64,000 nt of DNA from an uncultured Eubacteriales bacterium (GTDB lineage Bacteria > Acidobacteriota > Aminicenantia > Aminicenantales > Saccharicenantaceae). Below are positions 17,497 through 44,397 of the stretch, one piece after another. The position numbers and the translations under genes were made by a program. The notes under the pieces were generated by a model. It had not been told where the DNA came from, ran no database searches, and saw nothing but the letters and a program-made list of their open reading frames with translations. Numbering within the stretch: position 1 is the first letter of the stretch; every line of letters begins with the position of its first letter. The stretch spans positions 31,834 through 95,833 of the forward strand of contig CAYREO010000005.1 in NCBI GenBank assembly GCA_964423315.1. The letters run 5' to 3'.

Positions 17497-17592
17497 CTCC
17501 CGTCCAAGGCGATATCTATTGTGCCGCAGAGGTTACTTTATAACCAAGGACACAATAAAAATCAAGGAAAATCAACATCCATGAAATTAAAA

Positions 17593-17608
17593 TGTCGGCG
17601 TGCCGACA
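17593..17608. repeat. 16-bp inverted repeat TGTCGGCGTGCCGACA, copy 2; candidate parS-like site upstream of parA
   Basis: 15 of 16 positions match the copy at 15374-15389 (arms TGTCGGC/GCCGACA). It lies about 100 nt upstream of the parA start, embedded in an AT-rich tract. Confidence 0.4.
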
Positions 17609-17859
17609 ATTTTCTTAAATACCACTTAATAAATAAGATAATGTCACAATAAAAGCGCAGCAGCATATTTTCATGAACAGCGTAAGCTGAGTGTCTGAAT
17701 AATAGCGCTTCTATCGGCAACGTAAATAATTGATAATAAACAAAATACAGATATTCTATAACGCATTGAAAACAAATGAATTACGGCCTCATTAAATCTC
17801 CTGAAAAATGAGAATATTGTAGCGAGTGACGCGGGAGGAAATTTTTCATAGAATGATGT

Positions 17860-19338: not shown

Positions 19339-21123
19339 ATGACCGACGCGCCTTGCATCGTCCACATCCTTCCCGACGGGACCAAGGTCAAAGCCCGTCC
19401 GGGCGAGATCCTGGCCGACGTCTTGACCAAGGCCGGCGTTCCGCTCTCGCTTTACTGCCATAAGAAGGGCCTCTGCGGCAAGTGTGTCGTCCGCGTCATC
19501 GGCGGTCCCCTCCCCTTCCCTCATCCGGCCGAAGAGGCCTTGATCCGGGGAAAGCGGCTCAGCCCCGATCACAGGCTGGCCTGCCTCTACGAGATCCGGG
19601 GCGACATGACGGTCGAAATACCGCCGACCTCGCTTATCGGCCGGATCACCGTCCTTGAGACCGGCCTGGCGACATCCGTCGTCCCCGATCCCGCCGTGAG
19701 AAAGATCCCCATGACGTTGGAGGCCGGCGACGCCGGCTCCCCGTCGGCCGCTCTCGAACGGCTCGAAACCCGTCTGCAAACCCGCGATCTCGCCATGCCC
19801 CTGGCGGCTCTCGCCAAGCTCGGCGCTGGCGGCATCCCTTCCGGGAGCGAATTCACGGCCGTCCTCTACGGGGACCGCGAGGTCCTCGACATCGAGCCCG
19901 GTGACACGTCGGGCGAGGTCTACGGCTTGGCTGTCGATCTCGGGACCAGCACGATCGTCGCCGAGCTTGTCGACCTCCGGACGGGAGCGACCGTGACCCG
20001 GGCCTCGGCGATGAACAGCCAAGCCTCCTACGGGGCCGACGTCGTCTCGAGGATCACCTTCGCCTTCGAAGACCCCGACAACCTCCGCCGCCTCCGCAAC
20101 GCCGTCGTCCAGCTCCTCAACGAGCTCGTCGCCCAGACGACCCGCACGAGCGGGGTGCCCCGGCACAGGATCTACGACGCCGTCGTCGCCGGGAACACGG
20201 CCATGAACCACTTCCTGTGCGGCGTGCCCGTGGACTCCCTGGCCCTCGCCCCGTTCAACGCCGTCTTCGCCGCGCTGCCGGCGTTCCCGGCCTCGGCGAT
20301 CGGCCTCAATCTGGACCCCCACGCCCGGATCTATGTCGTCCCCAACATCGGGAGCTTCGTCGGCGGCGACATCACCGCCGGCCTGACCGCCTCGGAGATG
20401 GACGCCAAGCCGGGCCGGGAGCTGTTCATCGATCTCGGGACGAACGGCGAGATCGTCCTCAAGAGGGGCAGGGAATTCGCGGCCGCCTCGACGGCCGCCG
20501 GACCGGCTTTCGAGGGCATGAACATCAGCTGCGGCATGCTGGCCGTCGCCGGGGCCGTCCATCGCGCGGAATGGGACAACGGCTTCAAGCTGGGGACGAT
20601 CGACGGCCTGCCTCCGGCCGGGATCTGCGGGACGGGGCTCATCGACGTCCTGGCCCTGGCCCTCGAGCAGGGCCTGCTCGGCCCTGACGGGCGGATCGCC
20701 GCTCCCGGCAAAAAGATCGCGCTTGGAGAGGGTCTCGCCTTGACCCAGCAGGACATCCGGGCCGTCCAGCTGGCCGTGGCCGCCGTCCGGACCGGGGTGA
20801 CACTCATGCTCAGGGAGTTCCAAGTCTCCTCCCGCCAGCTCGACCGGATCCTCGTCGCCGGCGCGTTCGGCAGCTCGCTCGACGTCCGGAACGCCATGGC
20901 CATCGGCCTCCTGCCCCAAGTCCATCCCGGGAGGGTCACCTTCGTCGGGAACTCCTCGCTGGCCGGGGCCCGGAAGCTGCTCCTCGCGGGGCAGGCGCGG
21001 AAGGCCGCCGAGTCGCTGGCGGCGTCCGTGGCCCACGTGTCCCTGGCCGCGCGGCCCGGCTTCCAGGACGAGTTCGTCAAAGCCATGGAATTCCGGCCGT
21101 ACCGGGTAGCTGGTGATAAATGA
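19339..21123 (+). CDS. RamA-like ATP-dependent reductive activase of corrinoid proteins (N-terminal 2Fe-2S ferredoxin domain plus ASKHA/DUF4445 domain)
   Basis: N-terminus has a plant-type ferredoxin Cys pattern (CHKKGLCGKC...C). The C-terminal ~450 aa have the acetate/sugar-kinase-like fold signatures of the COG3894 RACo family. 594 aa. Confidence 0.8.
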   Translation: MTDAPCIVHILPDGTKVKARPGEILADVLTKAGVPLSLYCHKKGLCGKCVVRVIGGPLPFPHPAEEALIRGKRLSPDHRLACLYEIRGDMTVEIPPTSLIGRITVLETGLATSVVPDPAVRKIPMTLEAGDAGSPSAALERLETRLQTRDLAMPLAALAKLGAGGIPSGSEFTAVLYGDREVLDIEPGDTSGEVYGLAVDLGTSTIVAELVDLRTGATVTRASAMNSQASYGADVVSRITFAFEDPDNLRRLRNAVVQLLNELVAQTTRTSGVPRHRIYDAVVAGNTAMNHFLCGVPVDSLALAPFNAVFAALPAFPASAIGLNLDPHARIYVVPNIGSFVGGDITAGLTASEMDAKPGRELFIDLGTNGEIVLKRGREFAAASTAAGPAFEGMNISCGMLAVAGAVHRAEWDNGFKLGTIDGLPPAGICGTGLIDVLALALEQGLLGPDGRIAAPGKKIALGEGLALTQQDIRAVQLAVAAVRTGVTLMLREFQVSSRQLDRILVAGAFGSSLDVRNAMAIGLLPQVHPGRVTFVGNSSLAGARKLLLAGQARKAAESLAASVAHVSLAARPGFQDEFVKAMEFRPYRVAGDK

Positions 21124-22016
21124 GGAGCCTCCTCCTTCAACTCGCAGCGACCCGGCCCATCCTCCTCGACGGCGCCATGGGGACTGAGCTGATGGCCCGC
21201 GGGCTTCCCCGCGGGGCCTGTCCGGAAGCCTGGAACCTCGAACGGCCGGAGGTCGTCGCCGCCGTCCACGCGGATTACTTCGAGGCCGGGTCCGACGTCG
21301 TCTCCACAAATACGTTCGGCGGCAGCCGCATCAAGCTGGCCGGCCACGGGCTCGACGGCCGGACCTACGAGATCAACGCGGCCGCGGCCCGGCTGGCCCG
21401 GGGCGGGGCGCCCGCCGGCCGGTTCGTGGCCGGGAGCGTCGGGCCGACCGGGAAGTTCCTGAAGCCCCAGGGCGGATTCACCGAAGAGGAGTTCGAGGAC
21501 TCCTTCGCCGAGCAGGCCCGCGGCCTGGCCGACGGCGGGGTGGACGTGCTCCTTCTCGAGACGCACTACGACCTTCGGGAAGCCCTGGCCGGGGTGCGCG
21601 CCGCCCGTCGCGTGACGGGGATCCCCGTGTTCGTGACGATGACCTTCAACGCCCACCGCCGCGGCTTCTTCACTCTCATGGGCGACAGCGTCGCGACGTG
21701 CGCCGAAGAGCTCGAGCGGGCGGGGGTCGCGGCCGTCGGGGCCAACTGCACGCTCAACAGCGAGGAAATGGTCGGCGTGATCAGGGCCTTTGGATGGGCA
21801 ACGGCTCTGCCGCTCGTCGCCCAGGCCAACGCCGGCCGGCCCGTTCTGGGCGCGGACGGGAGCGTCGCGTATTCCCAGAGCTTGGACGACTATGTCAAGC
21901 ACGTCCCGGCCCTCATCGGGGCCGGGGCCCGTTTCGTCGGCGGGTGCTGCGGCACAGGCCCCGCCCATATCCGGGCCATGGCCCGGCTCGTCGCGAAAGA
22001 AGGAGTAACCGCGTGA
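21120..22016 (+). CDS. Homocysteine S-methyltransferase domain protein (MetH N-terminal Hcy-binding module, Pfam S-methyl_trans type), stand-alone
   Basis: ILLDGAMGTELM start, TIM-barrel Hcy-domain motifs and the zinc ligand motif GGCCGTGPAHIRAM. Its ATG overlaps the RamA stop (ATGA). Confidence 0.8.
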   Translation: MRSLLLQLAATRPILLDGAMGTELMARGLPRGACPEAWNLERPEVVAAVHADYFEAGSDVVSTNTFGGSRIKLAGHGLDGRTYEINAAAARLARGGAPAGRFVAGSVGPTGKFLKPQGGFTEEEFEDSFAEQARGLADGGVDVLLLETHYDLREALAGVRAARRVTGIPVFVTMTFNAHRRGFFTLMGDSVATCAEELERAGVAAVGANCTLNSEEMVGVIRAFGWATALPLVAQANAGRPVLGADGSVAYSQSLDDYVKHVPALIGAGARFVGGCCGTGPAHIRAMARLVAKEGVTA

Positions 22017-22663
22017 AGGAAGAGCTGTACAGGAACATGACGGAGGCCATCGTGGCCGGCGACCGGGCCCGGTCCGCCGCCCTGGCCGAAGAAGCCGTCA
22101 AGGGCGGTCTGGACCTGCTCGAGGTCATCGAAAAAGGCTATGTCCCGGGCATCCAGGAGGTCGGCCGGCTGTGGGAGGAGGGCGAGTACTTCCTGCCCGA
22201 GCTCATCACGAGCGCCGAGGCCATGAAAATGGCCATGGCCGTGCTCGAGCCCGAATTGGCCCGCCGGAGCCTCAAAGCCCGGACGGGGGGCAAGGTCGTC
22301 ATCGGCACGGTCGAGGGCGACATCCACGACATCGGCAAGAATCTCGTGGCCTCGATGCTCCAGGCGGGAGGGTTCGAGGTCCACGACCTCGGCGTCGACG
22401 TCCGCTTGGAACGGTTCGTCGAGACGGCCGAAGCGGTGGGCGCGGATTTCATCTGCCTCTCCGCCCTGCTGACGACGACCATGACCAACCAGAGGCGGCT
22501 CATCGCCATGCTCCGCGAAAAGGGCCTGCGGGACAAGTACAAGATCCTCGTCGGCGGGGCTCCCGCCAGCGCCAAGTGGGCCGAAGAGATCGGGGCCGAC
22601 GGCTACGCCGAGAACGCCGTGGCCGCCGTCAAGCTGGCCAAGTCCCTGGCCGGCCAGGGTTGA
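22013..22663 (+). CDS. B12-binding corrinoid protein (MtbC/MttC/MtgC-like: helical cap plus Rossmann B12 domain)
   Basis: DxHxxG cobalamin His-ligand motif (GDIHDIGKN) and Rossmann core (KVVIGTVEG...ADFICLSALLTTT). Start assigned to GTG 22013 (GTGA overlap with the upstream stop) because the N-terminal cap helix KEELYRNMTEAIVAGD would otherwise be lost. ATG 22037 is the alternative. Confidence 0.75.
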   Translation: MKEELYRNMTEAIVAGDRARSAALAEEAVKGGLDLLEVIEKGYVPGIQEVGRLWEEGEYFLPELITSAEAMKMAMAVLEPELARRSLKARTGGKVVIGTVEGDIHDIGKNLVASMLQAGGFEVHDLGVDVRLERFVETAEAVGADFICLSALLTTTMTNQRRLIAMLREKGLRDKYKILVGGAPASAKWAEEIGADGYAENAVAAVKLAKSLAGQG

Positions 22664-22683
22664 AGAAGGGAAGGACCGACATC

Positions 22684-24153
22684 ATGATCGAAGCGAAAAG
22701 ACCGAAGCTGGAGCTTCTGGACCGGGCCTTTGTCGAACGCATCGTGGATGAAGGCCTGACGCTCCTCGAGCGCCAGGGGATGATGATCGAGAACCCGGAA
22801 GCGCTCCGCCTTCTCGGAGAGGCCGGGGCGGACATCGACAGCGGCGGCCAAAGGGCCCGCTTGAAAAGGGACCTCGTCGAGACCTGCCTGGCCTCGACGC
22901 CGGCCTCCATCCGCCTTTACGATCGCGGCGGCGAGAAGGCGTTCGTCGTCGGCGGGGACGAGGTCCATTTCGACCCGGGCTCGGCGGCCGTGACCCTCCT
23001 CGACCATACGACCCGGGAGGAGCGCCGGGCGACGACCCGCGACCTCATCGATTTCTACAAGCTCGTCGAGACCCTGGAGAACATCCATTTCCAGAGCACC
23101 GGGCTGATCAGCACGGACGTCCCGGCCGCCGCCTCCGACGCCTACCGGCTCTATCTCGGGTTGTGTTTTTCGGCCAAGCCGTTCGTCACCGGGACCTTCC
23201 GGGTCGAGGGCTTCAAGCCGATGAAAGACCTGCTGGCCGCGGTCCGCGGCGGCGAAGAGGATCTCCGCCGCAAGCCCCTGGCCATTTTCGACGCCTGCCC
23301 CTCCCCTCCCCTCAAGTGGAGCCACCTGACCGCCCAGAGCCTGATCGACGCGGCCCGGGCCGGCATTCCCTCCGAGCTCATCTCCATGGGCATGACGGGG
23401 GCGACCTCGCCGGTGACCATCGCCGGGACCCTCGTCCAGCATGTCGCCGAGAGCCTCTGCGGCGTGGTCATTTGTCAGCTCGCCAAACCCGGCGCGCCGG
23501 TGATCTTCGGCGGTTCGCCGTCGAGCTTCGACATGAGGAAGGGCACAACCCCGATGGGGGCCATCGAGACGATGATGATCGACGCGGCCTACGCCCAGAT
23601 CGGAAAGTTCTTGAACCTGCCCACTCACGCCTACATGGGCCTGAGCGACGCCAAGGTCAATGACCCCCAAGCCGGTTTCGAGACCGCCCTGGGGGCTGCG
23701 CTGGGGGCCCTGGCCGGGGTCAACGTCATCTCCGGGCCGGGGATGCTGGATTTCGAGAGCGCCCAGAGCTTCGAGAAGCTGGTCATCGACGACGGCATCT
23801 GCGCCATGGTCTACCGGCTGCTGGCGGGCATCGCCCAGCGCGACGAGCCCATCGCCCTGGGGCTGTTCGAGGGCTTCACCCCCGACATGCAGTTCCTGTC
23901 CCATCCCCACACGCGGCGCTGGTACAGGAAGGAGCATATGCCCGCCGGGCTCGTTGACCGGGACCCCTACGACGCCTGGGTCGCGGCCGGCCGGACCTCG
24001 ATCGTCGACAAGGCCCATGCCGATGTCGCCCGGCGGATCGGGGCCTATGCGGCGCCCCCGCTGGACAAGGCCCTCGGCCGGGAGCTCGAGAGGATCATGA
24101 CCTCTTACGCCCGCGCCCAGGGCGCCGAGCATCTCCCGGCGCTGAATATCTGA
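22684..24153 (+). CDS. MttB-superfamily (trimethylamine methyltransferase family, COG5598) methyltransferase, non-pyrrolysine type
   Basis: 489-aa TIM-barrel MttB-family protein with no in-frame TAG, hence not a Pyl-dependent TMA methyltransferase. RBS GAAGGGAAGG precedes ATG 22684. The upstream part of ORF 22171..24153 is a spurious extension overlapping the corrinoid gene in another frame. Confidence 0.85.
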   Translation: MIEAKRPKLELLDRAFVERIVDEGLTLLERQGMMIENPEALRLLGEAGADIDSGGQRARLKRDLVETCLASTPASIRLYDRGGEKAFVVGGDEVHFDPGSAAVTLLDHTTREERRATTRDLIDFYKLVETLENIHFQSTGLISTDVPAAASDAYRLYLGLCFSAKPFVTGTFRVEGFKPMKDLLAAVRGGEEDLRRKPLAIFDACPSPPLKWSHLTAQSLIDAARAGIPSELISMGMTGATSPVTIAGTLVQHVAESLCGVVICQLAKPGAPVIFGGSPSSFDMRKGTTPMGAIETMMIDAAYAQIGKFLNLPTHAYMGLSDAKVNDPQAGFETALGAALGALAGVNVISGPGMLDFESAQSFEKLVIDDGICAMVYRLLAGIAQRDEPIALGLFEGFTPDMQFLSHPHTRRWYRKEHMPAGLVDRDPYDAWVAAGRTSIVDKAHADVARRIGAYAAPPLDKALGRELERIMTSYARAQGAEHLPALNI

Positions 24154-29241: not shown

Positions 29242-30615
29242 ATGATGAAGATGATGAAATGGCTTCCCTGGGCCCTTTTGACGGCGATTCTCGTTCTCGG
29301 CCCCGGCAAGTCCCCGTCCCTCGGACTCCCGGCCGCGGAGGACGAGCTCGTGGCCCGGGCCCGGGCGTTCCTCGAAGCCCTGCAGAAAGGGGATTTCGAG
29401 CGGGCGGCCACGGACTTCAACGAGACGATGATGAAGGTCTCCGGCCCGGAGAAGCTCGCGGCGTTCTGGAAAGAGGTCCCCTCCAAGCTCGGCGTGCTCA
29501 AGCGGCAGACGGGCGCCAGGCGGGACAAGCTCGGCCCCTACGAGATCGTTCTTGTCACCTGCGAGTTCGAGAAGACCGTCCTCGACGCCCGCGTCGTCTT
29601 CGACGAGGACGGCCGGATCGGCGGGTTCCAATTCGTCCCCTCCCTTCCCCCGGCGGCCTACGAGCCTCCCCCCTATGCCGATGCCGCTCTCTTCGAGGAG
29701 ACCGAGATCGAGATCGGGGGCCCGGAATGGAAGCTGCCGGGCACGCTGACCAAGCCGAAAGGCCCGGGACCGTTCCCCGCCCTGGTCCTCGTCCACGGTT
29801 CGGGTCCCAACGACAGGGACGAAACGATCGGGCCCAATAAGCCCTTCAAGGACCTGGCCTGGGGCCTGGCGAGCCGCGGCATCGCCGTCCTTCGCTACGA
29901 CAAGCGGACGAAGGTCCACGGCGCGAGGATGGTCGCGGGGGAGGCGGCGGGAGTCCCTCTGACCGTCATGGAGGAGACCATCGACGATGCCCTCCACGCG
30001 GTCGCTTTCCTGAGCAAGACTTCCGGCGTCGATCCGGGCCGCATCTTCGTTCTCGGCCACAGCCTGGGCGGTTTCCTCATGCCGCGGATCGCCGCGGCCG
30101 CCCCGCCGGGGGCCATCGCCGGGTTCATCGTCATGGCCGGATTGACCCGGCGGCTCGAGGACACCATGCTCGATCAGTATACATACCTGTACGGCCTGGC
30201 CGGCTCCTTGTCCGACGAGGACAAGGCGACCTTCGAGGGGATCAAGGCCGGCGTCGCCCGGGTCAAATCCCTGAAGGACTCCGACCGGACCTCGACCGAA
30301 AAGATCCTCGGCGTTTCCGCGGCCTATTGGCTGGACCTTCGGGACTACGACCCCGCGGACGCGGCCAAGGCCGTCGTCCGGCCGATGCTCTTTCTCCAAG
30401 GGGGCCGCGACTACCAGGTCAAGCCCGTCGACCTCGAGAACTGGAAGAAAGCCCTGGGCGGCCGTGACGACGTGGAATTCAAGCTCTACCCCAAGCTGAA
30501 TCATCTTTTCTTCGAAGGCCAGGGGCCGCCGACCCCCAACGAATACCTTCAGGTCCACGGCAGCGTCGCTCCCTACGTCATCGACGACATCGAAGGCTGG
30601 ATCTCACGGAAATGA
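29242..30615 (+). CDS. Alpha/beta-hydrolase (S9/dienelactone-hydrolase-like) with N-terminal DUF3887-like domain, secreted
   Basis: Signal peptide. GHSLGG nucleophile elbow. LVLVHGSGPNDRDE oxyanion region. Confidence 0.7.
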   Translation: MMKMMKWLPWALLTAILVLGPGKSPSLGLPAAEDELVARARAFLEALQKGDFERAATDFNETMMKVSGPEKLAAFWKEVPSKLGVLKRQTGARRDKLGPYEIVLVTCEFEKTVLDARVVFDEDGRIGGFQFVPSLPPAAYEPPPYADAALFEETEIEIGGPEWKLPGTLTKPKGPGPFPALVLVHGSGPNDRDETIGPNKPFKDLAWGLASRGIAVLRYDKRTKVHGARMVAGEAAGVPLTVMEETIDDALHAVAFLSKTSGVDPGRIFVLGHSLGGFLMPRIAAAAPPGAIAGFIVMAGLTRRLEDTMLDQYTYLYGLAGSLSDEDKATFEGIKAGVARVKSLKDSDRTSTEKILGVSAAYWLDLRDYDPADAAKAVVRPMLFLQGGRDYQVKPVDLENWKKALGGRDDVEFKLYPKLNHLFFEGQGPPTPNEYLQVHGSVAPYVIDDIEGWISRK

Positions 30616-32081
30616 GAGTCGCGTTCTTGGTCTCGGAGGCCGTCCCGTTCGCCAAGACGGGCGGACTGGCCGATGTCGCCGGGGCCCTGCCCCGCTTCCT
30701 CGCCCGGCAAGGCGTCGAGGTCCGGCTGTTCATGCCGTTCTACCGGGAAGTCCGGCGGAAGGGCCTTCCGCTCCGGCGGGTCGTCGACCGGATGAGCGTC
30801 GGACCCGGCAAGGGAGCGCCGGGGTTCTCGGTCCTCGAGCACCAGGCGGAAGGCTTCGCCGTCACGTTCATCGACCAAGAAGGCTATTTCGACCGCGACC
30901 ACCTGTACGGGACCGCCGCGGGCGACGACCCGGACAACGGGGAACGCTTCGCGTTCTTCTCGCGGGCGTCCCTGGAGGCCATGAAAGCCCTGGACTTCGC
31001 CCCCGACATCGTTCACGGCCACGACTGGCAATCCGCGACCGCTTTCGCCTACCTCCGGTTCGTTTACAGGGACGACCCGTTCTTCGCTTCGTCCCGTTCC
31101 CTGTTCACGGTCCATAACCTCGCCTACCAGGGTCTTTTCGAGCGGGCCATCCTCGACCGCGTCGGCCTGCCAGAGTCGCTCTTCGATCCGGCCGCTCTCG
31201 AGTTCTACGGGAAGGTCAACTTCCTCAAATCGGGATTCCTGTACGCCGACGCCATCACCACGGTCAGCCCGACCTACAGCCGCGAGATCCAGACCCCGGA
31301 GTACGGCTGTGGTCTGGACGGGCTCCTGCGGATGCGGTCCCAGGACCTCCACGGGATCCTCAACGGCGTCGATTACCTCGAATGGAATCCCGTGACCGAT
31401 CGGTTCCTCCCGGCCCGCTTCGGCCCCCGCGATCTCGCCGGCAAGCGCACGTGCCGTTCCGAGCTTCTCCGGATGTTCGGGATGTCCGACATCCCCACGG
31501 CCGCGGTTGTCGGCATGGTCACCCGCCTGGCCGGCCAAAAGGGGCTCGACATCGTCTGCGAGGCCCTGGACGACATCCTGGCGCTCGGCGTGAAGATCGT
31601 GATCCTGGGGGCGGGAGACCGGTCCATCGAGGACTTTCTCAGCCGGGCCAGGGCCCACCGGCCCGACGGGCTCGGGCTCAAGATCGCTTTCGACGAGCGG
31701 CTCGCTCACATGATCTATGCCGGCAGCGACATGTTCCTGATCCCCTCCCGATACGAGCCCTGCGGTCTGACCCAGATGTACGCGCTGAAATACGGGACGG
31801 TGCCCGTCGTCCGGGCCACGGGGGGGTTGGACGACACGATCCAGGAGTTCGACCCGGCGGCCCGGGCGGGCAACGGCTTCAAGTTCCCGTCGCCGACCGC
31901 CGCCGACCTGGTCGCCGGGCTCCGCCGGGCCCTCGATCATTTCACCGACAAGGAAACGTGGCGGGCTCTCGTGCGCAACGCCATGGCTTCCGATTTTTCC
32001 TGGACCCGTTCGGCCGGGAGCTACCTCGCCCTTTACCGGAAGATCCTCAAGAGCCCGCGCTCCTGGTGTCCCGTCTCATAA
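30612..32081 (+). CDS. glgA: Glycogen synthase (ADP-glucose-type, GT5)
   Basis: N-terminal KTGGLADV motif, GT-B fold, C-terminal GGLDDTI. 489 aa. Confidence 0.9.
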   Translation: MRVAFLVSEAVPFAKTGGLADVAGALPRFLARQGVEVRLFMPFYREVRRKGLPLRRVVDRMSVGPGKGAPGFSVLEHQAEGFAVTFIDQEGYFDRDHLYGTAAGDDPDNGERFAFFSRASLEAMKALDFAPDIVHGHDWQSATAFAYLRFVYRDDPFFASSRSLFTVHNLAYQGLFERAILDRVGLPESLFDPAALEFYGKVNFLKSGFLYADAITTVSPTYSREIQTPEYGCGLDGLLRMRSQDLHGILNGVDYLEWNPVTDRFLPARFGPRDLAGKRTCRSELLRMFGMSDIPTAAVVGMVTRLAGQKGLDIVCEALDDILALGVKIVILGAGDRSIEDFLSRARAHRPDGLGLKIAFDERLAHMIYAGSDMFLIPSRYEPCGLTQMYALKYGTVPVVRATGGLDDTIQEFDPAARAGNGFKFPSPTAADLVAGLRRALDHFTDKETWRALVRNAMASDFSWTRSAGSYLALYRKILKSPRSWCPVS

Positions 32082-32243
32082 ATCCGTTTCCCAAGTCCTC
32101 TGCAGAGCCGGGACATTTCCAGGGGGGAGTCGAGCTCCCCCCTCGGCGCTTCGCTCCGCTCCGCTGACCCCCTGAGGGGAACGCCGCCGTCCCCTCGAAC
32201 TCCCCCGCGGTGATGCCTCTCCAGATGCTCCCACATCACCGAG

Positions 32244-33290
32244 TTATTTCCGGGACGCATCACCAGTGTCCCGGAGGAATTCGGCCGCGGACTCGGGAGG
32301 GACGGGATTGATATAGAATCCTGTCCCCCATTCGAAGCCGGCGACCTTGGTCAGGATCGGGAAGATCTCCAGATGCCAGTGGTAGATCCTGTCGATCTCC
32401 GGCCAGGCCTGGCGCGAATGGGAGGGGTTCGGAGCTTGATGGAAGACCATGTTATAGGGCGGGTCCCCGACCTTGTCCTTGAGGGCCGTCAGCACGGCCT
32501 TCATGGCCTCGGCCAATGCGAGGAGCTCGTCATCGCCGGCATCGGTGAAGAACGGCGAGTGGTGGGCGGGATAGATGGCCGTCTCGAACGGGAAGCGGGA
32601 GGCGAAGGGGGTGAACGCCGTGAAATGACGGTTATGATGAACGACCCTCTGCCCGGATGCGTTCTCCTCCCGGAGGACCCGGCAGAACACGCACTCCTTG
32701 AAGCCCCGGTGGAGCCTCTCGGCGCCGTAGATCTCCTCCTTGACCCTCTTGGGGACGATGGGTGTGGCCACGATCTGCGAATGGGGGTGGCTCAGGGAGG
32801 CCCCGGCTTCCCGCCCCTTGTTCTTGAAGATCTGGACATACCGGTAATGGAACTCGGACTCGATGGCCCGGATCCGCTGCTGGAACACGGACAGAACGTC
32901 CCGGATGTGGCCGACCGGCAGGTCGCCGAGCTCCAGGCCGTGGTCCGGGTTCTCGATGACGACCTCGTGAACGCCGGTCCCCTCCATCCAGGGGTAAATG
33001 CCCCGCGTCCTTTTCGGCTGGGAGGGGCCGCGGCTGAGCGCCGGGAACTTGTTGGGGACGACGCGGACCGTCCAGCCGGGCGAATCGGGAGACGTGCCGG
33101 AGGGCCGGACGGTCGTGGCGATCTCGGGCGGGGTCTTGACCTCGCTGCCCTCGCAGAAGGGGCAGAACGCGCGCCTCTCCTCGGCGGCGGGAGCGGGGCG
33201 TGCCGGGCGGTAATCGTCGGGCCTCTTGCCCCGCTCGGTGGCGATGATGACCCACCGTCCGCTGATCAGGTCCTTCCGCAGCTCGGACAT
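32244..33290 (-). CDS. GalT-family (HIT-superfamily) hexose-1-phosphate nucleotidyltransferase: UDP-glucose--hexose-1-P uridylyltransferase, or possibly ADP-glucose phosphorylase
   Basis: Zinc CPFC motif and HPHSQ histidine-triad active-site motif. Start at ATG 33290, overlapping the response-regulator stop (ATGA); the longer ORF to 33656 is a spurious overlap. Confidence 0.7.
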   Translation of the reverse strand: MSELRKDLISGRWVIIATERGKRPDDYRPARPAPAAEERRAFCPFCEGSEVKTPPEIATTVRPSGTSPDSPGWTVRVVPNKFPALSRGPSQPKRTRGIYPWMEGTGVHEVVIENPDHGLELGDLPVGHIRDVLSVFQQRIRAIESEFHYRYVQIFKNKGREAGASLSHPHSQIVATPIVPKRVKEEIYGAERLHRGFKECVFCRVLREENASGQRVVHHNRHFTAFTPFASRFPFETAIYPAHHSPFFTDAGDDELLALAEAMKAVLTALKDKVGDPPYNMVFHQAPNPSHSRQAWPEIDRIYHWHLEIFPILTKVAGFEWGTGFYINPVPPESAAEFLRDTGDASRK

Positions 33291-33646
33291 CAGCGCTCCA
33301 GGAGCTCGCGGATCTTCGCCTTGAGCTCGTCGAGCGAGGAGGACTTGACGACGTAGGCGTCGGCCGCCCAGGTCATGAAATCCTCTTTGTAGCTCTGGTA
33401 GGCCGAGTTGATGATGATGGGGATGTCCTTGCGGAGGCCCATGATCTGGGTGATGAGCTCGATGCCGTCCTTGCCGGGCATCCGGATGTCGGTGACGATG
33501 AGGTCGAACTCGGACGCGCTGAGCGCTTCGAGAGCGGCCTCCGCATCGGTGACGGCCGTCACGTCGTATCCGTCCTTGCTCAACTCCTCCTCGTAGAGAA
33601 GGCAGAGCGGTTGTTCGTCCTCGACGAGCAGGATCCTCTTGCCCAT
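33290..33646 (-). CDS. Single-domain response regulator (CheY-like receiver only)
   Basis: ILLVEDE...D, phospho-acceptor in LIVTDIRMPGKDG, conserved K in AYVVK. 118 aa with no output domain. Confidence 0.85.
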   Translation of the reverse strand: MGKRILLVEDEQPLCLLYEEELSKDGYDVTAVTDAEAALEALSASEFDLIVTDIRMPGKDGIELITQIMGLRKDIPIIINSAYQSYKEDFMTWAADAYVVKSSSLDELKAKIRELLER

Positions 33647-33652
33647 GGCGGT

Positions 33653-34993
33653 TCACTCCCTTTCGCGGTATTTGAAGGACAGCTTGAACAGCGCCCCGCT
33701 GCCCACGCGGCTCCGGACCTCGATCTTGCCTCCGCAGGTGTCCATGACCCTTTTGATGAACGGCAGGCCGAGGCCCATGCCCTTGTCCTTGGTCGTGAAA
33801 AAGGGCCTGAAAAGCTGCTCCTTATCGGGGTTGGAGATGCCCTTCCCGGTGTCGCGGACCGAGAGAAAATACCAGGAGGCGTTCTTCCTGTACCCGCGGA
33901 CCGAGATCCGGCCCCCCTGGGGCGTGGCCTCGAAGGCGTTGTCGAGAAGATTGCGAAGGACCTCCCCGAAGGAGGTCGGGTCGCAGAACAGGAGCGGCAA
34001 CCTCTCCTCGATGTGGACCCTCAGATCGTAGGCCAAGCTGCGTTCCCGGACCTCGGGGCTCCCGATGACCGACTCGATGACCGGGCCGGGATCGAAGAAC
34101 ACCGGCTCCTTGAGGCTGACCTTGAGGAAGTGCCCCATCTGGAAGATGATGTGCTCGAGGCGGCGGATCTCGTCACGGATGATCCGGGTGTTCCTCTCCC
34201 TTTTGTCCTCGGGGAGGCCGGGCTGAAGCAGCTGGTCGGCGAACCCGCCGATGGCCACGATCGGGTTCCGGATCTGATGGGTCACGAACATGGCCATCTC
34301 GCCCATGGCGGATGTCTTCTCCATTTCGAGCAGCTTGCGATGGAGACTGGATGAGTACACGTAGTTGCCTGCGATCAGCCCGCAGAGGCCGGCCAGCTTG
34401 ATGTCCCCGGGGCTGATGGGCGTCCGGGTGATGGCGTTGTCGAGGACGATCTCCCCGAGGACCTCGTCGCGGGCGAGAAGGGGGATGCAGAGGAACTCAT
34501 CGACCTGGATGATGTCCAGGAACCGGCGATCGACGAGCGGTTCCTCGCGGGCGTTGCGGACGAGGAGGATCTCCTGGCGGCTCGAGGCCATGGCCGGGAT
34601 GAAGGCGTTGTCCTCGTCGGCCGCGTAGACGAGGTCCCGGATCCGGCGACTGAGCGTATCCTCGTTCTTGCGGACCAGGGCCCGGTTGTGCTCGACGATC
34701 TCGATGTAGCCGATGCCGGGCGTCGACAGGACCTCCCAGATATCGCCGGCTTCCTCGGCCGAACTCGGGCCCAGCCACATCTCGCCCTTGAGCCTGTCCC
34801 CGTCGCGGAGAAAGAGCATGGCCCGGTTGAAGCCGACCCCCGAGCCGGAGGTCAAGGCCGTCAGCGTGACAAGAAGGTTGTCCTCGAGGGAAAAGGGTTG
34901 AAAGAAGCTCTGGGCGATGATGGACAGGAGCATCAGCTCCTTGGGGGCGCCGGGCTCGATCTCGAAGGACTTGAAATCGTACCTTTCGATCAT
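33653..34993 (-). CDS. GAF-domain sensor histidine kinase (cytoplasmic)
   Basis: Start at ATG 34993 (MIERYDF), overlapping the glgC stop (ATGA). N-terminal GAF-like region. H-box (FVTHQIRNP) and HATPase_c motifs (LLDNAFEAT, DTGKGI, GMGLGL). Confidence 0.8.
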   Translation of the reverse strand: MIERYDFKSFEIEPGAPKELMLLSIIAQSFFQPFSLEDNLLVTLTALTSGSGVGFNRAMLFLRDGDRLKGEMWLGPSSAEEAGDIWEVLSTPGIGYIEIVEHNRALVRKNEDTLSRRIRDLVYAADEDNAFIPAMASSRQEILLVRNAREEPLVDRRFLDIIQVDEFLCIPLLARDEVLGEIVLDNAITRTPISPGDIKLAGLCGLIAGNYVYSSSLHRKLLEMEKTSAMGEMAMFVTHQIRNPIVAIGGFADQLLQPGLPEDKRERNTRIIRDEIRRLEHIIFQMGHFLKVSLKEPVFFDPGPVIESVIGSPEVRERSLAYDLRVHIEERLPLLFCDPTSFGEVLRNLLDNAFEATPQGGRISVRGYRKNASWYFLSVRDTGKGISNPDKEQLFRPFFTTKDKGMGLGLPFIKRVMDTCGGKIEVRSRVGSGALFKLSFKYRERE

Positions 34994-36174
34994 TCGCACG
35001 TCCAGCCCTTGGGTACGACGCGGACGCCTCCCCTGCTGATCTTGAACTGACGCTTGTCGCGCTCGTCGTCGAAGCCGGCCTTGAACCCGGCCGGAAGGAC
35101 CGAGAACTTGTCGACGATGGTCTTGCGGAGCCGGGCCCCCCGGCGGACCTCGACGCCTTCGAAGAGGATGGAATCGACGATCTCGACGCCGGGTTCGAGG
35201 CTGACGCCGGCTGAGACGATGGAGTTCTCGACGCGGCAGTCCAGGAGCGTGCAGCCGGACCCGATGATGGAGTTCCGGACGGTCTCCCCGGAGATGAAAG
35301 TCGGCGGGTACTGGGGCTTGTATGTCCGGACCGGCCAGTTCGGGTCTTTCAGGATCGTCGGGGGGGACGGCGACAGGAAGGCCATGTTGGCCTCCCAATA
35401 GGCGTCGAGGGTCCCGATGTCCTCCCAATACTCCTCGAACGGGAAGGCGTAGATCCTGTGACTGCGGACCAGGCCGGGGATGACGTCCTTGCCGAAATCG
35501 TGGGAACTCCTCGCGTTGCGGGCGTCCTTGATGAGGGCCTTGATGAGGACCGGGGTCTTGAAGAGATAGATGCCCATGGACACGAGGCTTTTCGCGGGAT
35601 CCCAGGGCGTCCCCGATGGGGTTTTGGGCTTCTCGACGAAGTCGATGATCCGGCTGTCGCTGTCGACGCCGATGACGCCGAACCGGGACGCGTCCTGGAC
35701 CGGAACGACCTTGGTCATGATGATCGCATCGGCATCGGTCTCGGCATAGAAGCGGGCGAGCTTCCGATAATCGGCGTTGTAGATGTGGTCGCCCGAAAGG
35801 ATGAGAACGGCCTCCGGCCCCTCCTGCTGGATGGTGTAGATGTTCTGGAAAACGGCATCGGCCGTGCCCTCGTACCAGTGGTCGCTGACCCGGCCCTGGG
35901 CGGGGAGGGAGATGATGTAATCGCCGCTCTCGGCGTGGAAGATGTTCCACCCGTTGAGGATGTGCCGCTCGAGGGACAGGGATTTGTACTGGGAAAGGAG
36001 GGCGATCCGGCGGAACCCCGAATTGAGCGCGTTCGACAGGCTGAAATCGATGATCCGGTAGGTGCCGAGGAAAGGGACGGACGGCTTGGCCCGGTCCTTC
36101 GTCAGAGGGTAAAGCCTTTCCCCCTTGCCTCCGCAGAGCAGCATGACCAGGACCTTCTTCCGCGGCTGTTCCAT
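34990..36174 (-). CDS. glgC: Glucose-1-phosphate adenylyltransferase
   Basis: LCGGKGERLYPLT nucleotide-binding motif and a C-terminal left-handed beta-helix. 394 aa. Confidence 0.9.
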   Translation of the reverse strand: MEQPRKKVLVMLLCGGKGERLYPLTKDRAKPSVPFLGTYRIIDFSLSNALNSGFRRIALLSQYKSLSLERHILNGWNIFHAESGDYIISLPAQGRVSDHWYEGTADAVFQNIYTIQQEGPEAVLILSGDHIYNADYRKLARFYAETDADAIIMTKVVPVQDASRFGVIGVDSDSRIIDFVEKPKTPSGTPWDPAKSLVSMGIYLFKTPVLIKALIKDARNARSSHDFGKDVIPGLVRSHRIYAFPFEEYWEDIGTLDAYWEANMAFLSPSPPTILKDPNWPVRTYKPQYPPTFISGETVRNSIIGSGCTLLDCRVENSIVSAGVSLEPGVEIVDSILFEGVEVRRGARLRKTIVDKFSVLPAGFKAGFDDERDKRQFKISRGGVRVVPKGWTCE

Positions 36175-36239
36175 GCTCGAACCTTCTTTCGCTCCTTCCT
36201 CCCCCGCGATCCCCGGGCCATTATATCAAATTCCGGTCC

Positions 36240-40957: not shown

Positions 40958-42001
40958 TCACGTCCGTTTGAACAGATAGGCGCTGTCACGTAGCTTGTTG
41001 GCGACGCCGTCGTGCACCGCGTAGCGCGATCCCTGGAAGAGGGCGGCCCCGCCGAATTCCCCTTTTTTATTCAATGCGTAGAAGTCGAGCCCGAACTTCG
41101 GCCGGCCCCGCTCGTCACAGAGGCGCGGCACGAGCTTCGTCTTGGCCGCCACGGCCTCGCAAACCTTCAGGCACGCGTCCTCGGGCGACAGGCCGCGGCC
41201 CATGAGGTCGACGATCCGGAAGCTCGCGCAGGTCTGGAGGTTGGCCTCTCCCCGGCCGGTCGATCCGGCGGCCCCGATGTCGTTGTCGACATAGAGCCCG
41301 GCCCCGATGATCGGTGAATCTCCCACCCGGCCGGCGATCTTCCACGACAGACCGCTCGTCGTGGTCACTCCGGCCAGCCGGCCCCCGGCGTCGAGGGCCA
41401 GGCAGTTGATCGTTCCGGTGGTGCTCATGGCCGAGCGGACCTCGGGCGGGAGGCTCTCGGACCGCGGCGGGAACCAGTTGTCCCGATCCGACATCATCTC
41501 CTTCCAGCGAAGCCAGGCCTCCCGGGCCTTATCCGTCAGGAGGTTCTCTTCCTTGAAGCCGTGGGCCCGGGCGAACCGCAGGGCCCCTTCGCCGACCAGC
41601 AGGACATGGTCGGTCCGCTCCATGACCAATCGGGCCACCTTCGAGGGGTTCTTGATGTTCCTCAGCGAGGCCACGGCCCCGGCCGAATGCGTCGGCCCGT
41701 ACATGACCGAGGCGTCGAGCTCGACGACCCCGTCCTCGTTCGGAAGTCCGCCGTAGCCGACGGACATGTCCTCGGGATCGTCCTCGACGATGTTGACCCC
41801 GGCGATGACGGCGTCCAGGGGATCGCCGCCCGCGCGAAGGATCTCCATGGCTTTGTCCGTGGCCCGAAGACCGTTGCCGGAGGCCACCGCCCGGAGGGGT
41901 GTCCCGGCCGTCAGGGTCGGGAGCGCCGGCGCCCCGAGGGCGGCCGCCGCCCCGAGGGCGGCTCCGCACCTGAAGAAATCCCGTCGGGAGAATCCGTTCA
42001 T
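40958..42001 (-). CDS. Glycosylasparaginase / isoaspartyl peptidase family Ntn-hydrolase (N4-(beta-N-acetylglucosaminyl)-L-asparaginase-like), Tat-exported
   Basis: Twin-arginine signal SRRDFFRCGAALGAAAALGAP. Asparaginase_2 motifs with the autoproteolytic nucleophile region (NDIGAAGSTGRGE... TTGTINCLALD). Confidence 0.75.
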   Translation of the reverse strand: MNGFSRRDFFRCGAALGAAAALGAPALPTLTAGTPLRAVASGNGLRATDKAMEILRAGGDPLDAVIAGVNIVEDDPEDMSVGYGGLPNEDGVVELDASVMYGPTHSAGAVASLRNIKNPSKVARLVMERTDHVLLVGEGALRFARAHGFKEENLLTDKAREAWLRWKEMMSDRDNWFPPRSESLPPEVRSAMSTTGTINCLALDAGGRLAGVTTTSGLSWKIAGRVGDSPIIGAGLYVDNDIGAAGSTGRGEANLQTCASFRIVDLMGRGLSPEDACLKVCEAVAAKTKLVPRLCDERGRPKFGLDFYALNKKGEFGGAALFQGSRYAVHDGVANKLRDSAYLFKRT

Positions 42002-44397
42002 GACCGCTGTCCTCCTTTCGATGCCGTGAGCGCGCCCTCGAGATCCTCGAGAAGCTGGATGACGACGTTGTGATCGCCCTCGGGGACGGAGAATTTGACG
42101 GCATTCCCTTTGAAGACCTCCGTTTCCCGTCCGTCGATGAGCAACTGATATTTCCCTTTTTTCAGGAGCCGGAGCCGGAGCTGGCGGGCCTTGAGGGTCT
42201 TGATATCGAAAGACACTTCAGACTCGTTGTAAAGGAACCGACGGAAGACGGCCCCCCCGTTGGCGGACACGATCCTCGATCCCTCCTCAAAGAGCGAGGT
42301 CTCGGACCGGGATACGCCGACTTCGTATTGGCGGCCCTGGATCATGATCCGCGACAGCCGCCCCTTGGTTTCGGGATTGAGGATCCCGAAGCGGAACCCC
42401 TCATGGGGGGTGAAGTCGAGATATTCCTCGATCGCCGGGAGGGCGGCGAGCGGGCCCCAGCTCTGGTATCGGCGGCCACCCGCTTCGCCGGTGAGAGAAT
42501 CGTAGTTCTCGGGGCAGAGGCCGAAGCTCGCCCAGCTGCGCATGAACATGTCCGCGCTCTTTCGGGCCAGCTCGGACGCCACGACGTCGAACCCCCCGGC
42601 CCTCAAACCTTGGTAGACGAGGTAGTTCATCGGCGGTGAAACGGCTCCCCGCCAGATCTGCTGGTTCTCGGACTTGAAAGCCGGGTCGTCCCGGGAGATG
42701 GACGGAAGGACGTGGTCCCCCCAGAACTTCGCGGGATCAAGGAGATGCTTGAGCATCCGCTGGGCCCGCGATTCATCGGGGATACGGGCCAGGAGAGGCA
42801 GGAAAGCGGACGCCGCCTTGTGGACGGACATCCGCCCGTCCCAGTGCCGGTCGAAATAGAATCCCTCCCGGTCGTTCCATAGCCGGGCGTTCATGAGCGA
42901 CTTGATGGTCTCATACTGGCCACGGTAGCGCTCGGCGTCGAACTTCCGCCCGAGGATGGCCGCGATCTCGGCCAGACACCAGGAATCCAGGGCGTAGAGG
43001 GCATTGAGGTCGACGCAATTCATCATCAGGGTCCCGGTCTCGTCGCTGAAAGGGACATCGTCCCAGTTCGGCAGATCGTCCTGCCCGGATTCCCACGCCG
43101 CCCTCATCCGGCCCGTGGCGTTCTTTTCCCACGTAGGGACGTTCCTCCCGATGAGCTCGGCGTCGGACCCCCATTCGAGGAGCCCATCGCTGTTGCCGTC
43201 CCTGCGGATGGACCCGTTCCGCTTGCGGGCCGTCCAGAAATCGTGCCATCTCTGGAGGTACGGGTAGGCGTACCGGAGGAACTCGATGTCCCCCAGCCGC
43301 TGGAAAAGCTTCATCACGACGTACGATCCGATGGGTGGCTGGGAACGGTCCTGCGTCCCGCCGTGGGGACCACGCCAGTTCGGGATGTTGCCGTTCGGAT
43401 ACTGGGTTTCGAGCAGGGCCCGGACGGCGTCCAGGGCGAGCTTCCGGCTCTCCATCGCCAGGCCCAGGGCCGCGAACAGCCCGTCCCCCCTGTGGACCGT
43501 CCAGGGCTCCGACCCCTCGTCCGGCCGGGGGAAGACCCAAGTCCTCCCCGACGGGACGTAAAAGCGATGTTCGCCGGGTTGGTAGAGGACGGACCAATGA
43601 AGATTGCTGGAGACGGCCTCGGCGACACCTGAGGCGAGGCCACGGGCTTTGACCCGTCTCTGTTCATAGACCCGGGCCTCTTCATCGATCAAAGCGTCGA
43701 TAGCCCTGGCGTTCATGTATCGGGTCAAACGGTCGCCGAGGGTCTTGGGGTCCCCATCGACGCCGGCGGCGAAGGACACGGTCCTGTCGGCCGCCGATTC
43801 GAACGACAGGGCCACGCCGCCGGGAGGGCCATCCACCGGCTTGCCCGGCCGATGGACCCAGATCTGGTAATGCCAAAGGGCATCATCCCCGCTCCGCCCA
43901 CGGACCTGGCCGTCCGGGAGAAGCGAATACGCCCCGCCCGGGCCCCACGGAAAATAGTGGACGAGGTGGACCTTGACATTCCCCGGTCCGCGGACGCGGC
44001 CGATGACGATGGTTTCGTCTCTCCGCGACCATTCGAAGGTCAGGACCTGACCCCGGGGCGGAGGTTTGAGAAAGACGGGCGTGTCTTTCCCGCGCTTGAA
44101 GGGCAGTCCGAGATCGAAACGCATCCGGGCGTATTGACCGTCCGGAGAGAGAGGGCCGACCTCGGAGACGAGATAATAGAAGTCGCCGCCCTCGGCCGTC
44201 TCCCCATCCCTCTCGATGCGAAGCACGAAGGCGAACGCCGCATCCCGGTCCGGGGCGATGACCAGCCCGGGCCACGCCGGCCCGTCAAGAGCCCCGATGA
44301 AGGTGTTTTTCCAGGGGTAGAAGACCTCGGCGCCCAGCCCGGCCGTAATAAGGGCCAGGAGGGCAAGGCTTAAGAGCGTTCTTCTCATGGCGGCCAT
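41998..44397 (-). CDS. Glycoside hydrolase with a C-terminal (alpha/alpha)6-barrel, GH63-like (processing alpha-glucosidase / mannosylglycerate hydrolase family), secreted
   Basis: Signal peptide. The C-terminal ~450 aa carry GH63/GH37-type barrel signatures. The N-terminal beta-sandwich is typical of GH63. Overlaps the downstream asparaginase gene (ATGA). Confidence 0.6.
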   Translation of the reverse strand: MAAMRRTLLSLALLALITAGLGAEVFYPWKNTFIGALDGPAWPGLVIAPDRDAAFAFVLRIERDGETAEGGDFYYLVSEVGPLSPDGQYARMRFDLGLPFKRGKDTPVFLKPPPRGQVLTFEWSRRDETIVIGRVRGPGNVKVHLVHYFPWGPGGAYSLLPDGQVRGRSGDDALWHYQIWVHRPGKPVDGPPGGVALSFESAADRTVSFAAGVDGDPKTLGDRLTRYMNARAIDALIDEEARVYEQRRVKARGLASGVAEAVSSNLHWSVLYQPGEHRFYVPSGRTWVFPRPDEGSEPWTVHRGDGLFAALGLAMESRKLALDAVRALLETQYPNGNIPNWRGPHGGTQDRSQPPIGSYVVMKLFQRLGDIEFLRYAYPYLQRWHDFWTARKRNGSIRRDGNSDGLLEWGSDAELIGRNVPTWEKNATGRMRAAWESGQDDLPNWDDVPFSDETGTLMMNCVDLNALYALDSWCLAEIAAILGRKFDAERYRGQYETIKSLMNARLWNDREGFYFDRHWDGRMSVHKAASAFLPLLARIPDESRAQRMLKHLLDPAKFWGDHVLPSISRDDPAFKSENQQIWRGAVSPPMNYLVYQGLRAGGFDVVASELARKSADMFMRSWASFGLCPENYDSLTGEAGGRRYQSWGPLAALPAIEEYLDFTPHEGFRFGILNPETKGRLSRIMIQGRQYEVGVSRSETSLFEEGSRIVSANGGAVFRRFLYNESEVSFDIKTLKARQLRLRLLKKGKYQLLIDGRETEVFKGNAVKFSVPEGDHNVVIQLLEDLEGALTASKGGQRS

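Follow-up and report, generated by a model that had tools for sequence, protein, structure and literature searches.

In textbook accounts, allostery of GlgC and global regulators govern bacterial glycogen synthesis; for the glgBXCAP genes of Escherichia coli these controls are allosteric GlgC and, at the transcript level, CsrA, ppGpp and PhoP-PhoQ. Here we describe a glycogen locus in a 64-kb stretch of DNA from an uncultured bacterium of the Aminicenantia (assembly GCA_964423315.1, contig CAYREO010000005.1; G+C about 65%; hereafter the window, meaning the whole stretch analysed), in which genes for a soluble GAF-domain histidine kinase (HK), a receiver-only response regulator (RR) and a GalT-like enzyme of the HIT family lie between glgC and glgA. 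Close homologues carry names that assign the DNA to Candidatus Aminicenantes. With moderate confidence, we read this locus as a conserved module of glycogen and nucleoside diphosphate (NDP)-glucose metabolism that would carry its own dedicated two-component switch at the NDP-glucose node. The locus shares with glgBXCAP the core enzymes GlgC and GlgA and ADP-glucose as the committed intermediate. It differs in that the window is without glgB (GH13), glgX and glgP, its relatives using three enzymes of glycoside hydrolase family 57 (GH57), and in that the operon holds regulator genes, a regulator without a DNA-binding domain and a putative ADP-glucose-removing enzyme.

Receiver-only regulators are known to act either by protein contact, as in CheY-FliM, CpdR-ClpXP and DivK-DivL, or by relay, as in Spo0F. 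The regulator of the window resembles CheY, CpdR, DivK and Spo0F in being a single receiver with a complete phospho-acceptor pocket and the Y-T coupling residues, but its family has an alpha4-beta5 signature of its own, with Lys-Ser in place of Lys-Pro after beta5, and, unlike CheY, CpdR and DivK, it is linked to sugar-nucleotide enzymes and not to motility, proteolysis or the cell cycle. Both signalling proteins have a described counterpart in the Thermotoga maritima pair ThkA/TrrA (PDB 3A0R, 3A0U, 3A10; Yamada et al. 2009), of which 3A0R contains ThkA (TM1359) with TrrA (TM1360) (PMC4034769). TrrA is likewise receiver-only (116 amino acids) and bears the signature TAY..Y..D...WA.D.YVVKS, and the H-box of ThkA (LGEMTARVAHEIRNPITIIGGF) agrees with that of the window-kinase family. 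The domain beside the DHp helix is PAS in the ThkA fragment that was crystallised and GAF in the window kinase, and the Aminicenantia kinases have Gln, not Glu, after the phospho-histidine. Our literature search found neither a physiological role nor a gene context for ThkA/TrrA (TM1359/TM1360).

To our knowledge, ADP-glucose phosphorylase activity has so far been known only from one plant protein, At5g18200 of Arabidopsis thaliana, whose physiological role we take to be itself unclear. The plant enzyme is said to work by ping-pong transfer via adenylyl-His186, reversibly, with an equilibrium constant (Keq) of about 5-40 towards ADP and glucose-1-phosphate. The title of PDB 2H39 names an ADP-glucose phosphorylase with bound ADP-glucose, and according to a passage of PMC6329318, which cites McCoy 2006, At5g18200 proved to be an ADP-glucose phosphorylase rather than a GalT. 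Like At5g18200 (PDB 1Z84, 1ZWJ, 2H39), the window enzyme has a CxxC zinc site, an HxHxQ motif with the nucleophilic histidine and a second CxxC site; it differs in being bacterial, only 38% identical and set in a glycogen operon with a two-component system, and its activity is a prediction. With E. coli GalT (galETKM; PDB 1HXP, 1GUP) it shares the superfamily fold and the catalytic HxHxQ, but it is 27% identical, has another C-terminal sugar-binding motif and is without galK, galE or galM neighbours. Literature searches returned nothing relevant on bacterial ADP-glucose phosphorylase, on two-component systems in glg operons or on GH57 with GalT. The component families are all known; their assembly, a ThkA/TrrA-type switch in glycogen operons together with a bacterial At5g18200 orthologue, was not found described in the literature searched.

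The locus consists of a four-gene operon and a convergent glgA, as follows.

34990-36174, minus strand: glgC, glucose-1-phosphate adenylyltransferase, first gene of the four-gene operon (394 amino acids; Pfam NTP_transferase, 1.8e-60, and LbH).
33653-34993, minus strand: soluble histidine kinase (446 amino acids; Pfam GAF, HisKA and HATPase_c).
33290-33646, minus strand: receiver-only response regulator (118 amino acids; Pfam Response_reg alone, 1.6e-23, residues 5-113).
32244-33290, minus strand: GalT-like HIT-family nucleotidyltransferase, putative NDP-glucose (ADP-glucose) phosphorylase (348 amino acids; GalP_UDP_transf N- and C-terminal domains, HIT).
30612-32081, plus strand: glgA, ADP-glucose-type glycogen synthase (489 amino acids; Glyco_transf_5, 3.4e-82; TIGR02095, 548 bits against a cut-off of 328).
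34990-34993, minus strand: ATGA in which the glgC stop overlaps the kinase start, read from the sequence (translational coupling).
33647-33652, minus strand: 6-nucleotide spacer TGAaccgccATG from the kinase stop to the regulator start, read from the sequence.
33290, minus strand: TGATG, a 1-nucleotide overlap of the regulator stop and the GalT-like start.

The gene content, order, strands and coordinates of an initial annotation of this DNA were reproduced exactly by open reading frame (ORF) reading, Pfam and NCBIfam. Window GlgC shares 41% identity with E. coli GlgC along the full length and scores 423-445 bits against the NCBIfam glgC models (TIGR02091, 422.8), slightly below the equivalog cut-offs. 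All three junctions of the four-gene run are operon-tight. The initial annotation had placed an ATGA overlap at every one of them; this describes the glgC/kinase junction, where the same relation of glgC end to kinase start is found in at least ten Aminicenantia loci, and not the other two, where the kinase and regulator genes are parted by the 6-nucleotide spacer and the regulator and GalT-like genes meet in TGATG. The ribosome-binding site of the regulator gene, AAGGGAG, sits inside the 3' end of the kinase gene. For glgA, which had been called divergent or convergent, the convergent arrangement is the correct one, with a gap of 162 nucleotides to the GalT-like gene. Across the 64-kb window, galK, galE, GH57, glgB, glgX and glgP all went undetected, E. 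coli GlgP, GlgX and GlgB queries finding nothing.

An alignment of GalT-like proteins, scanned against one genome per species, gave 80 loci (designated here by L numbers), whose genes were analysed with tblastn and ORF clustering, all of the relatives being metagenome-assembled genomes; flanks extended 8-10 kb, and the crude ORF calls were checked by tblastn. Loci of GalT-like homologues at 64%, 72% and 93% identity have the arrangement glgC-HK-RR-GalT-like with a convergent glgA. Kinase and regulator are both present in 13 of the 15 Aminicenantia-type loci, the remaining two lying on truncated contigs; twelve loci read glgC-HK-RR-GalT-like, and L006, which is cut at the kinase, reads HK-RR-GalT-like. 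Every untruncated Aminicenantia locus keeps the pair beside the GalT-like gene, and the chance juxtaposition that the initial annotation would have seen in a pair missing from the glg locus of relatives finds no counterpart here.

Outside the Aminicenantia, kinases of 28-35% identity (over the full length, sensor included) and regulators of 38-48% identity stand beside GalT-like genes (GalTL) in shuffled orders. Two Omnitrophota loci (L027, L052) read HK-RR-GlgC-GalTL-GlgA-GH57-GlgB, and GalTL-HK-RR-GlgC-GlgA is found in Armatimonadota (class Zipacnadia, L019) and in a metagenome (L090). The order is GalTL-GlgA-HK-RR in Nitrospirota (L039, L043, L065), Nitrospinota (L056) and Terriglobia (L036), and DksA-GalTL-HK-RR, GalTL-RR-UDPGP or GalTL-RR-NTP_transferase in Thermodesulfobacteriota (L040, L042, L028, L061, L041). 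The orthologous kinases from these groups have one to three clear GAF domains. Orthologous kinase/regulator pairs adjoin GalT-like, glgA, glgC or another sugar-1-phosphate nucleotidyltransferase gene in at least six non-Aminicenantia lineages, and the minimal recurring set consists of GalT-like, kinase and regulator (L021, L040, L042, L087, L088). Among the 68 non-Aminicenantia GalT-like loci, a regulator of the family type occurs in 19 and both kinase and regulator in 14; glgA is directly adjacent to the GalT-like gene in 23 and glgC in 4.

A reciprocal scan of metagenome contigs with a cross-phylum regulator alignment, more a control than a census, yielded at least eight true orthologues, four of them with useful flanks. 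Among the matches listed, three of these four (L087, L088, L090) have a GalT-like gene and a GAF kinase; the fourth, L089, is without GalT-like, and its contig ends 236 nucleotides past the regulator gene. Not one of the 72 generic receivers among the matches listed has GalT-like, glgA or glgC nearby. The synteny check proposed along with the initial annotation thus shows a linkage that recurs in at least seven lineages. Because this linkage is conserved in close relatives and also across phyla, the placement of kinase and regulator beside glycogen genes is more than chance and indicative of a real functional link.

The GalT-like protein carries, unvaried among its homologues, the catalytic and metal-binding motifs CPFC (C43, C46), SHPHSQ at 167-172 (H168, H170, Q172; nucleophile H170) and CVFC (C200, C203). 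None of H168, H170 and Q172 varies across 17 homologues, and the three align with H164/H166/Q168 of E. coli GalT and with SHSHSQ of At5g18200, and the structural zinc-site residues C43/C46 and H117/H168 are conserved. Judged by these motifs, the protein belongs to the GalT branch of the HIT superfamily. Its best match among solved structures is At5g18200 (2.2e-65, 224 bits), ahead of Pyrobaculum GalT 6K5Z (177 bits), E. coli GalT (100 bits) and human GalT (71 bits). The phylogeny called for in the initial annotation, built by neighbour-joining, places the bacterial GalT-like proteins and At5g18200 in one clade, with 6K5Z as sister and E. coli GalT as outgroup. Counting only positions where 6K5Z is aligned, 19 of those at least 90% conserved in the bacterial clade are common only to At5g18200 and 4 only to 6K5Z (PaGalT); the 19 include the flanks of the HIT motif and the entire C-terminal hexose-binding motif GFE.GTG.YINPV.PE. 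Because of the scores (224 against 100 bits) and the clade-specific positions (19 against 4), a reassignment from GalT to the At5g18200 type appears reasonable. The neighbours of the GalT-like gene, with glgA, glgC and GH57 genes recurring and UDP-glucose pyrophosphorylase-family genes in two loci, point to a role in NDP-glucose and glycogen metabolism. By homology and context, we regard the protein as an enzyme of the NDP-glucose phosphorylase type, most probably specific for ADP-glucose in this organism, as its place beside GlgC and GlgA of the ADP-glucose type would suggest; the nucleotide may vary elsewhere, since a UDP-glucose pyrophosphorylase-family gene replaces glgC in those two loci.

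The regulator retains E9/D10, the phospho-acceptor D53, S81, Y98 and K101, all of the pocket residues needed for phosphorylation, and carries the family signature SAYQSYKEDFMTWAADAYVVKS; in the cross-phylum alignment its alpha4-beta5 segment is kept as TAY..YK.DF.TWA.DAYVVKS. Its description as an output-less, CheY-like protein holds, the receiver domain filling most of its 118 residues and no further domain being present. It is the best conserved protein of the operon within the Aminicenantia (71-89% identity, compared with 61-76% for GalT-like, 63-74% for GlgC, 51-75% for the kinase and 52-68% for GlgA). Compared with solved structures, it scores 97.9 bits against T. maritima TrrA and 62.6 against the next, and with the family profile TrrA reaches 144 bits, the next natural protein 96. 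With 43-56% identity to members from each phylum and 60% to the cross-phylum consensus, TrrA falls inside the regulator family. A Thermotogaceae metagenome-assembled genome has a GlgA-GalT-like locus (L058) without a two-component system within 8 kb. Downstream of the regulator no conserved output partner was found, the neighbours varying among a HEAT-repeat protein, dNK, a methyltransferase, EF-G, an FHA protein and others.

The sensor of the kinase spans approximately residues 20-215 (nucleotides 34349-34936). Its match to the GAF family PF01590 is marginal (22.7 bits over the full length, cut-off 22.4; 25.7 bits for the 215-residue sensor region alone). The same family is matched by 18 of 19 orthologous sensor domains, with a best E value of 1.9e-11, and in a PDB profile search the sensor-domain profile retrieves the solved GAF domains 3OOV and 4MCW, so that the GAF identity can be considered secure at the family level. 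The subfamily signature is LTALT.G.G.GFNRAMLFL ... GP.S.EEA..IW ... PL...G.I..DNA, and its profile finds 464 clusters at E <= 1e-10 among 1.84 billion representatives, in proteins of 240-1900 amino acids. No hydrophobic segment is present in the kinase (maximum 19-residue Kyte-Doolittle mean 1.21), in agreement with its first description as lacking transmembrane segments. The catalytic set is complete, with H239 (THQIRNP), N352, the G1 box D381/G383/G385 (DTGKG), FRPFFTTK and the G2 box G405-G409 (GMGLGL), and among solved structures ThkA (3A0R_A) ranks second as a match to the catalytic core. An AlphaFold2 model of the kinase, made from a shallow alignment of 24 close homologues, was discarded (mean predicted local distance difference test score, pLDDT, 56; sensor domain below 50).

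The operon encodes an ADP-glucose maker (GlgC) and a likely remover (GalT-like) beside the consumer (GlgA), and we propose that a switch acts among them. GlgC produces ADP-glucose and GlgA uses it, while the GalT-like enzyme would most likely interconvert NDP-glucose and phosphate with NDP and glucose-1-phosphate via a covalent His170-nucleotidyl intermediate. The soluble kinase would sense an intracellular small molecule by its GAF domain and set the phosphorylation state of D53 in the receiver-only regulator of the ThkA/TrrA family; the regulator would in turn contact a co-encoded enzyme through its strongly conserved alpha4-beta5 surface and so decide whether ADP-glucose goes into glycogen or back to glucose-1-phosphate. 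We infer direct binding because the regulator lacks an output domain, because in other phyla its gene is followed by no conserved partner, and because it is always wedged against GalT-like or GlgC/UDPGP/NTP_transferase genes. The GalT-like enzyme would be the first candidate target, since the minimal recurring set joins it to the kinase and the regulator, and a sugar-1-phosphate nucleotidyltransferase the second. We likewise infer the GAF ligand, the nucleotide used by the GalT-like enzyme and the direction of its reaction; by analogy, a drain or "valve" is the likelier direction if the Keq given above for the plant enzyme holds here.

A wider form of this proposal, which we put forward only tentatively, is that the ThkA/TrrA-type system may serve as a post-translational glycogen switch in many phyla. 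The GAF kinase would phosphorylate a receiver that binds the GalT-like enzyme and/or the nucleotidyltransferase, thereby gating an ADP-glucose cycle in which GlgC would convert ATP and glucose-1-phosphate to ADP-glucose and pyrophosphate, and the GalT-like enzyme would convert ADP-glucose and inorganic phosphate to ADP and glucose-1-phosphate. According to the state of the switch, carbon would be stored, ADP-glucose would be dissipated, or the cycle and GlgA together would take the place of glycogen phosphorylase.

Several observations weigh against a dedicated switch built around an ADP-glucose phosphorylase. Many GalT-like genes have neither a two-component system nor glg genes as neighbours, and gene linkage shows shared function rather than contact between regulator and enzyme; a phosphorelay or an unlinked transcription factor could be fed by the same pair. 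The window enzyme is as close to the archaeal GalT 6K5Z as to At5g18200 (38% identity each, against 27% for E. coli GalT), and the archaeal enzyme is reportedly a genuine uridylyltransferase. The suggestion in the initial annotation that the GalT homologue could be an ADP-glucose phosphorylase is partly supported, by best match and clade and not by identity. Two Thermodesulfobacteriota loci pair the GalT-like gene with a UDP-glucose pyrophosphorylase-family gene, not with glgC. Foldseek against the PDB, which started from an AlphaFold2 model of low confidence (pLDDT 62, shallow alignment), ranks At5g18200 and PaGalT equal; it was set aside as a way of settling the nucleotide, since it confirms the GalT fold (only GalT-family chains at E < 1e-16) and ties the two. 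As to the kinase, a Glu after the phospho-histidine supports autophosphorylation in HisKA kinases. All Aminicenantia kinases of the family carry Gln at this H+1 position (THQxRNP; window H239-Q240, nucleotides 34274-34279), orthologues in other phyla retain Glu (HEIxNP), and a Terriglobia orthologue (L036, 10690-12096) has Phe in place of the phospho-histidine itself. These substitutions suggest weak-autokinase or pseudo-kinase variants, and because of them signalling by the kinase may be non-canonical.

The part of the proposal that concerns the regulator has to be weighed against a connection by gene expression or phosphorelay, in which the receiver would either hand on its phosphoryl group to some unlinked effector, DNA-binding or other, or titrate that effector, and would leave the enzymes untouched. 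Spo0F, a receiver-only relay intermediate, is among the closer solved relatives (85-93 bits), the genes after the regulator vary between phyla so that a relay partner could be encoded elsewhere, and co-transcription alone could explain the linkage. We nonetheless find this reading somewhat doubtful: the loci share no conserved gene for an Hpt protein, a second kinase or a DNA-binding regulator, the regulator gene is squeezed among enzyme genes with overlapping or near-overlapping codons and retains enzyme neighbours despite shuffled gene order, and the cross-phylum conservation of its alpha4-beta5 surface goes far past what phosphotransfer requires.

Two other readings turn on the enzyme. The GalT-like protein could make ADP-glucose from ADP and glucose-1-phosphate, with release of inorganic phosphate, as an ATP-sparing supply for GlgA, or, with GlgA running in reverse, it could open a GlgP-independent route from glycogen to glucose-1-phosphate. 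Its gene adjoins glgA far oftener than glgC (23 against 4 of the 68 loci outside the Aminicenantia), several loci hold GalT-like and glgA with no glgC within 8 kb, and the E. coli GlgP query found no homologue in 86 GalT-like loci (L001-L083, L087, L088, L090) or in the window, GlgP-free loci that often hold glgA, glgC, branching and GH57 genes. The plant reaction is also said to be reversible. We think synthesis or bypass unlikely as the main role, however, because this Keq and the usual cellular excess of inorganic phosphate over glucose-1-phosphate favour phosphorolysis, because a glgC in the same operon (window, Omnitrophota) makes a second source of ADP-glucose unnecessary, and because glgC and glgP may lie beyond the 8-10 kb of flank covered. 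Far less probable is an ordinary Leloir galactose-1-phosphate uridylyltransferase with an unrelated kinase/regulator pair brought into the glycogen locus by chance. Annotation pipelines do label the protein GalT, its score against NCBIfam galT_1 (104.6 bits) is just over the cut-off of 102.1, and the identity to 6K5Z is that given above; yet against the GalT equivalog PRK11720 it reaches 141 bits where the cut-off is 448. Neighbouring galK and galE, which the initial annotation took as the mark of a classic Leloir role, are not a feature of these loci: an E. coli GalK query had no match in 83 GalT-like loci or in the window, and galE-like genes occur in 3 of the 83, kilobases away. Since galK is missing in this way, the genomic context argues strongly against a Leloir role and thus against a part for the protein in galactose metabolism. 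The GalT-like gene is moreover embedded in the glycogen clusters of many phyla, and the kinase/regulator linkage seen in at least seven lineages is absent from the 72 control receivers listed, so that on synteny this last reading is essentially excluded.

Other observations concern the surroundings of the glg genes. In the 162-nucleotide gap between the GalT-like gene and glgA there are GC-rich hairpins that do not stand out statistically, one of which is given here.

32122-32142, strand unassigned: GC-rich hairpin GGGGGGAG-CTCGA-CTCCCCCC in the gap between GalT-like and glgA (fold of 32075-32250, z-score -1.68).

According to the predicted fold, this hairpin could be a bidirectional terminator, an assignment in which we have low confidence. 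Consensus scans found no sigma-70-like promoter and no T-tract terminator (7 terminator-like matches, against a shuffle mean of 4.7), and Rfam, scanned over the whole window, gave a single tRNA but neither a riboswitch nor a leader close to the operon. At its other end, glgA overlaps by ATGA (30612-30615) the stop of an upstream DUF3887 / alpha-beta-hydrolase (S9/S33-like) gene (29242-30615, plus strand), and the same overlap is present in the closest relative, L165 (10477-10480); from this arrangement, glgA appears translationally coupled to a putative secreted hydrolase gene in this lineage. Other Aminicenantia usually have three GH57 genes, encoding a GH57 protein of uncertain specificity, an AmyA-like glucanotransferase and a GH57 branching enzyme, between an M28 peptidase gene and glgC (L001, 2209-7137; L002, 2188-7124). 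The trio is missing from the window (36175-36239) and from the 93%-identical relative L165, and in both organisms it must be elsewhere in the genome or have been lost.

GalT-like genes were also observed in other settings. In Terriglobales they stand in a housekeeping arrangement, CysS - class III aminotransferase - UPF0102 - GalT-like - IscX/Fdx/HscA, with no glycogen genes and no two-component system (L029, L046, L050, L060, L063, L064, L067, L068, L073 and others). Two Omnitrophota genomes carry tandem GalT-like paralogues (L054, 8001-10021; L059, 8001-10024), which share 49% and 43-44% identity with the window protein; neither glg genes nor a two-component system lie close by. In six Thermodesulfobacteriota loci (L024, L028, L040, L041, L042, L061) a DksA-family gene lies directly upstream of GalT-like or of GH57-GalT-like, a neighbourhood that hints at a link of the stringent response to the module.

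Elsewhere in the window, at a distance of 6 kb from the operon, lies the gene of a large glycoside hydrolase of the MGH1-like / GH63 / trehalase-like type (799 amino acids; 41998-44397, minus strand), with a possible link to the turnover of compatible solutes or glucosides. The plus-strand cluster at 19339-24153 resembles a corrinoid-dependent methyl-transfer system in its make-up: a RACo-type corrinoid activase, a homocysteine S-methyltransferase-family protein and an MttB-family methyltransferase. In L001 the same relative position holds MttB and a B12-binding protein. The stretch 14001-18000 is of low G+C (0.51-0.57, against about 0.65 elsewhere) and contains parB (15876-16739, minus strand) and parA (16732-17496, minus strand); it may be a partition locus near the replication origin, or foreign DNA. 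The Lon protease ORF (8267-10711, plus strand) has a stop inside Lon_C at 10189, the C-terminal end of Lon continuing in another frame (10388-10711), which points to frameshifts around the catalytic region or else to errors of assembly.

If the proposed switch is real, a two-component system encoded within the operon, with a regulator free of any DNA-binding domain, would add a new and probably post-translational layer to the control of bacterial glycogen, and a co-encoded ADP-glucose phosphorylase would be a new step in its metabolism. It would also give ThkA/TrrA, long used as a structural model, a first physiological role. Hundreds of database entries now named galactose-1-phosphate uridylyltransferase may be mis-assigned. 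Many carriers of the module are uncultured, energy-limited anaerobes (Aminicenantia, Omnitrophota, Nitrospirota, Thermodesulfobacteriota), organisms for which carbon storage is central to survival.

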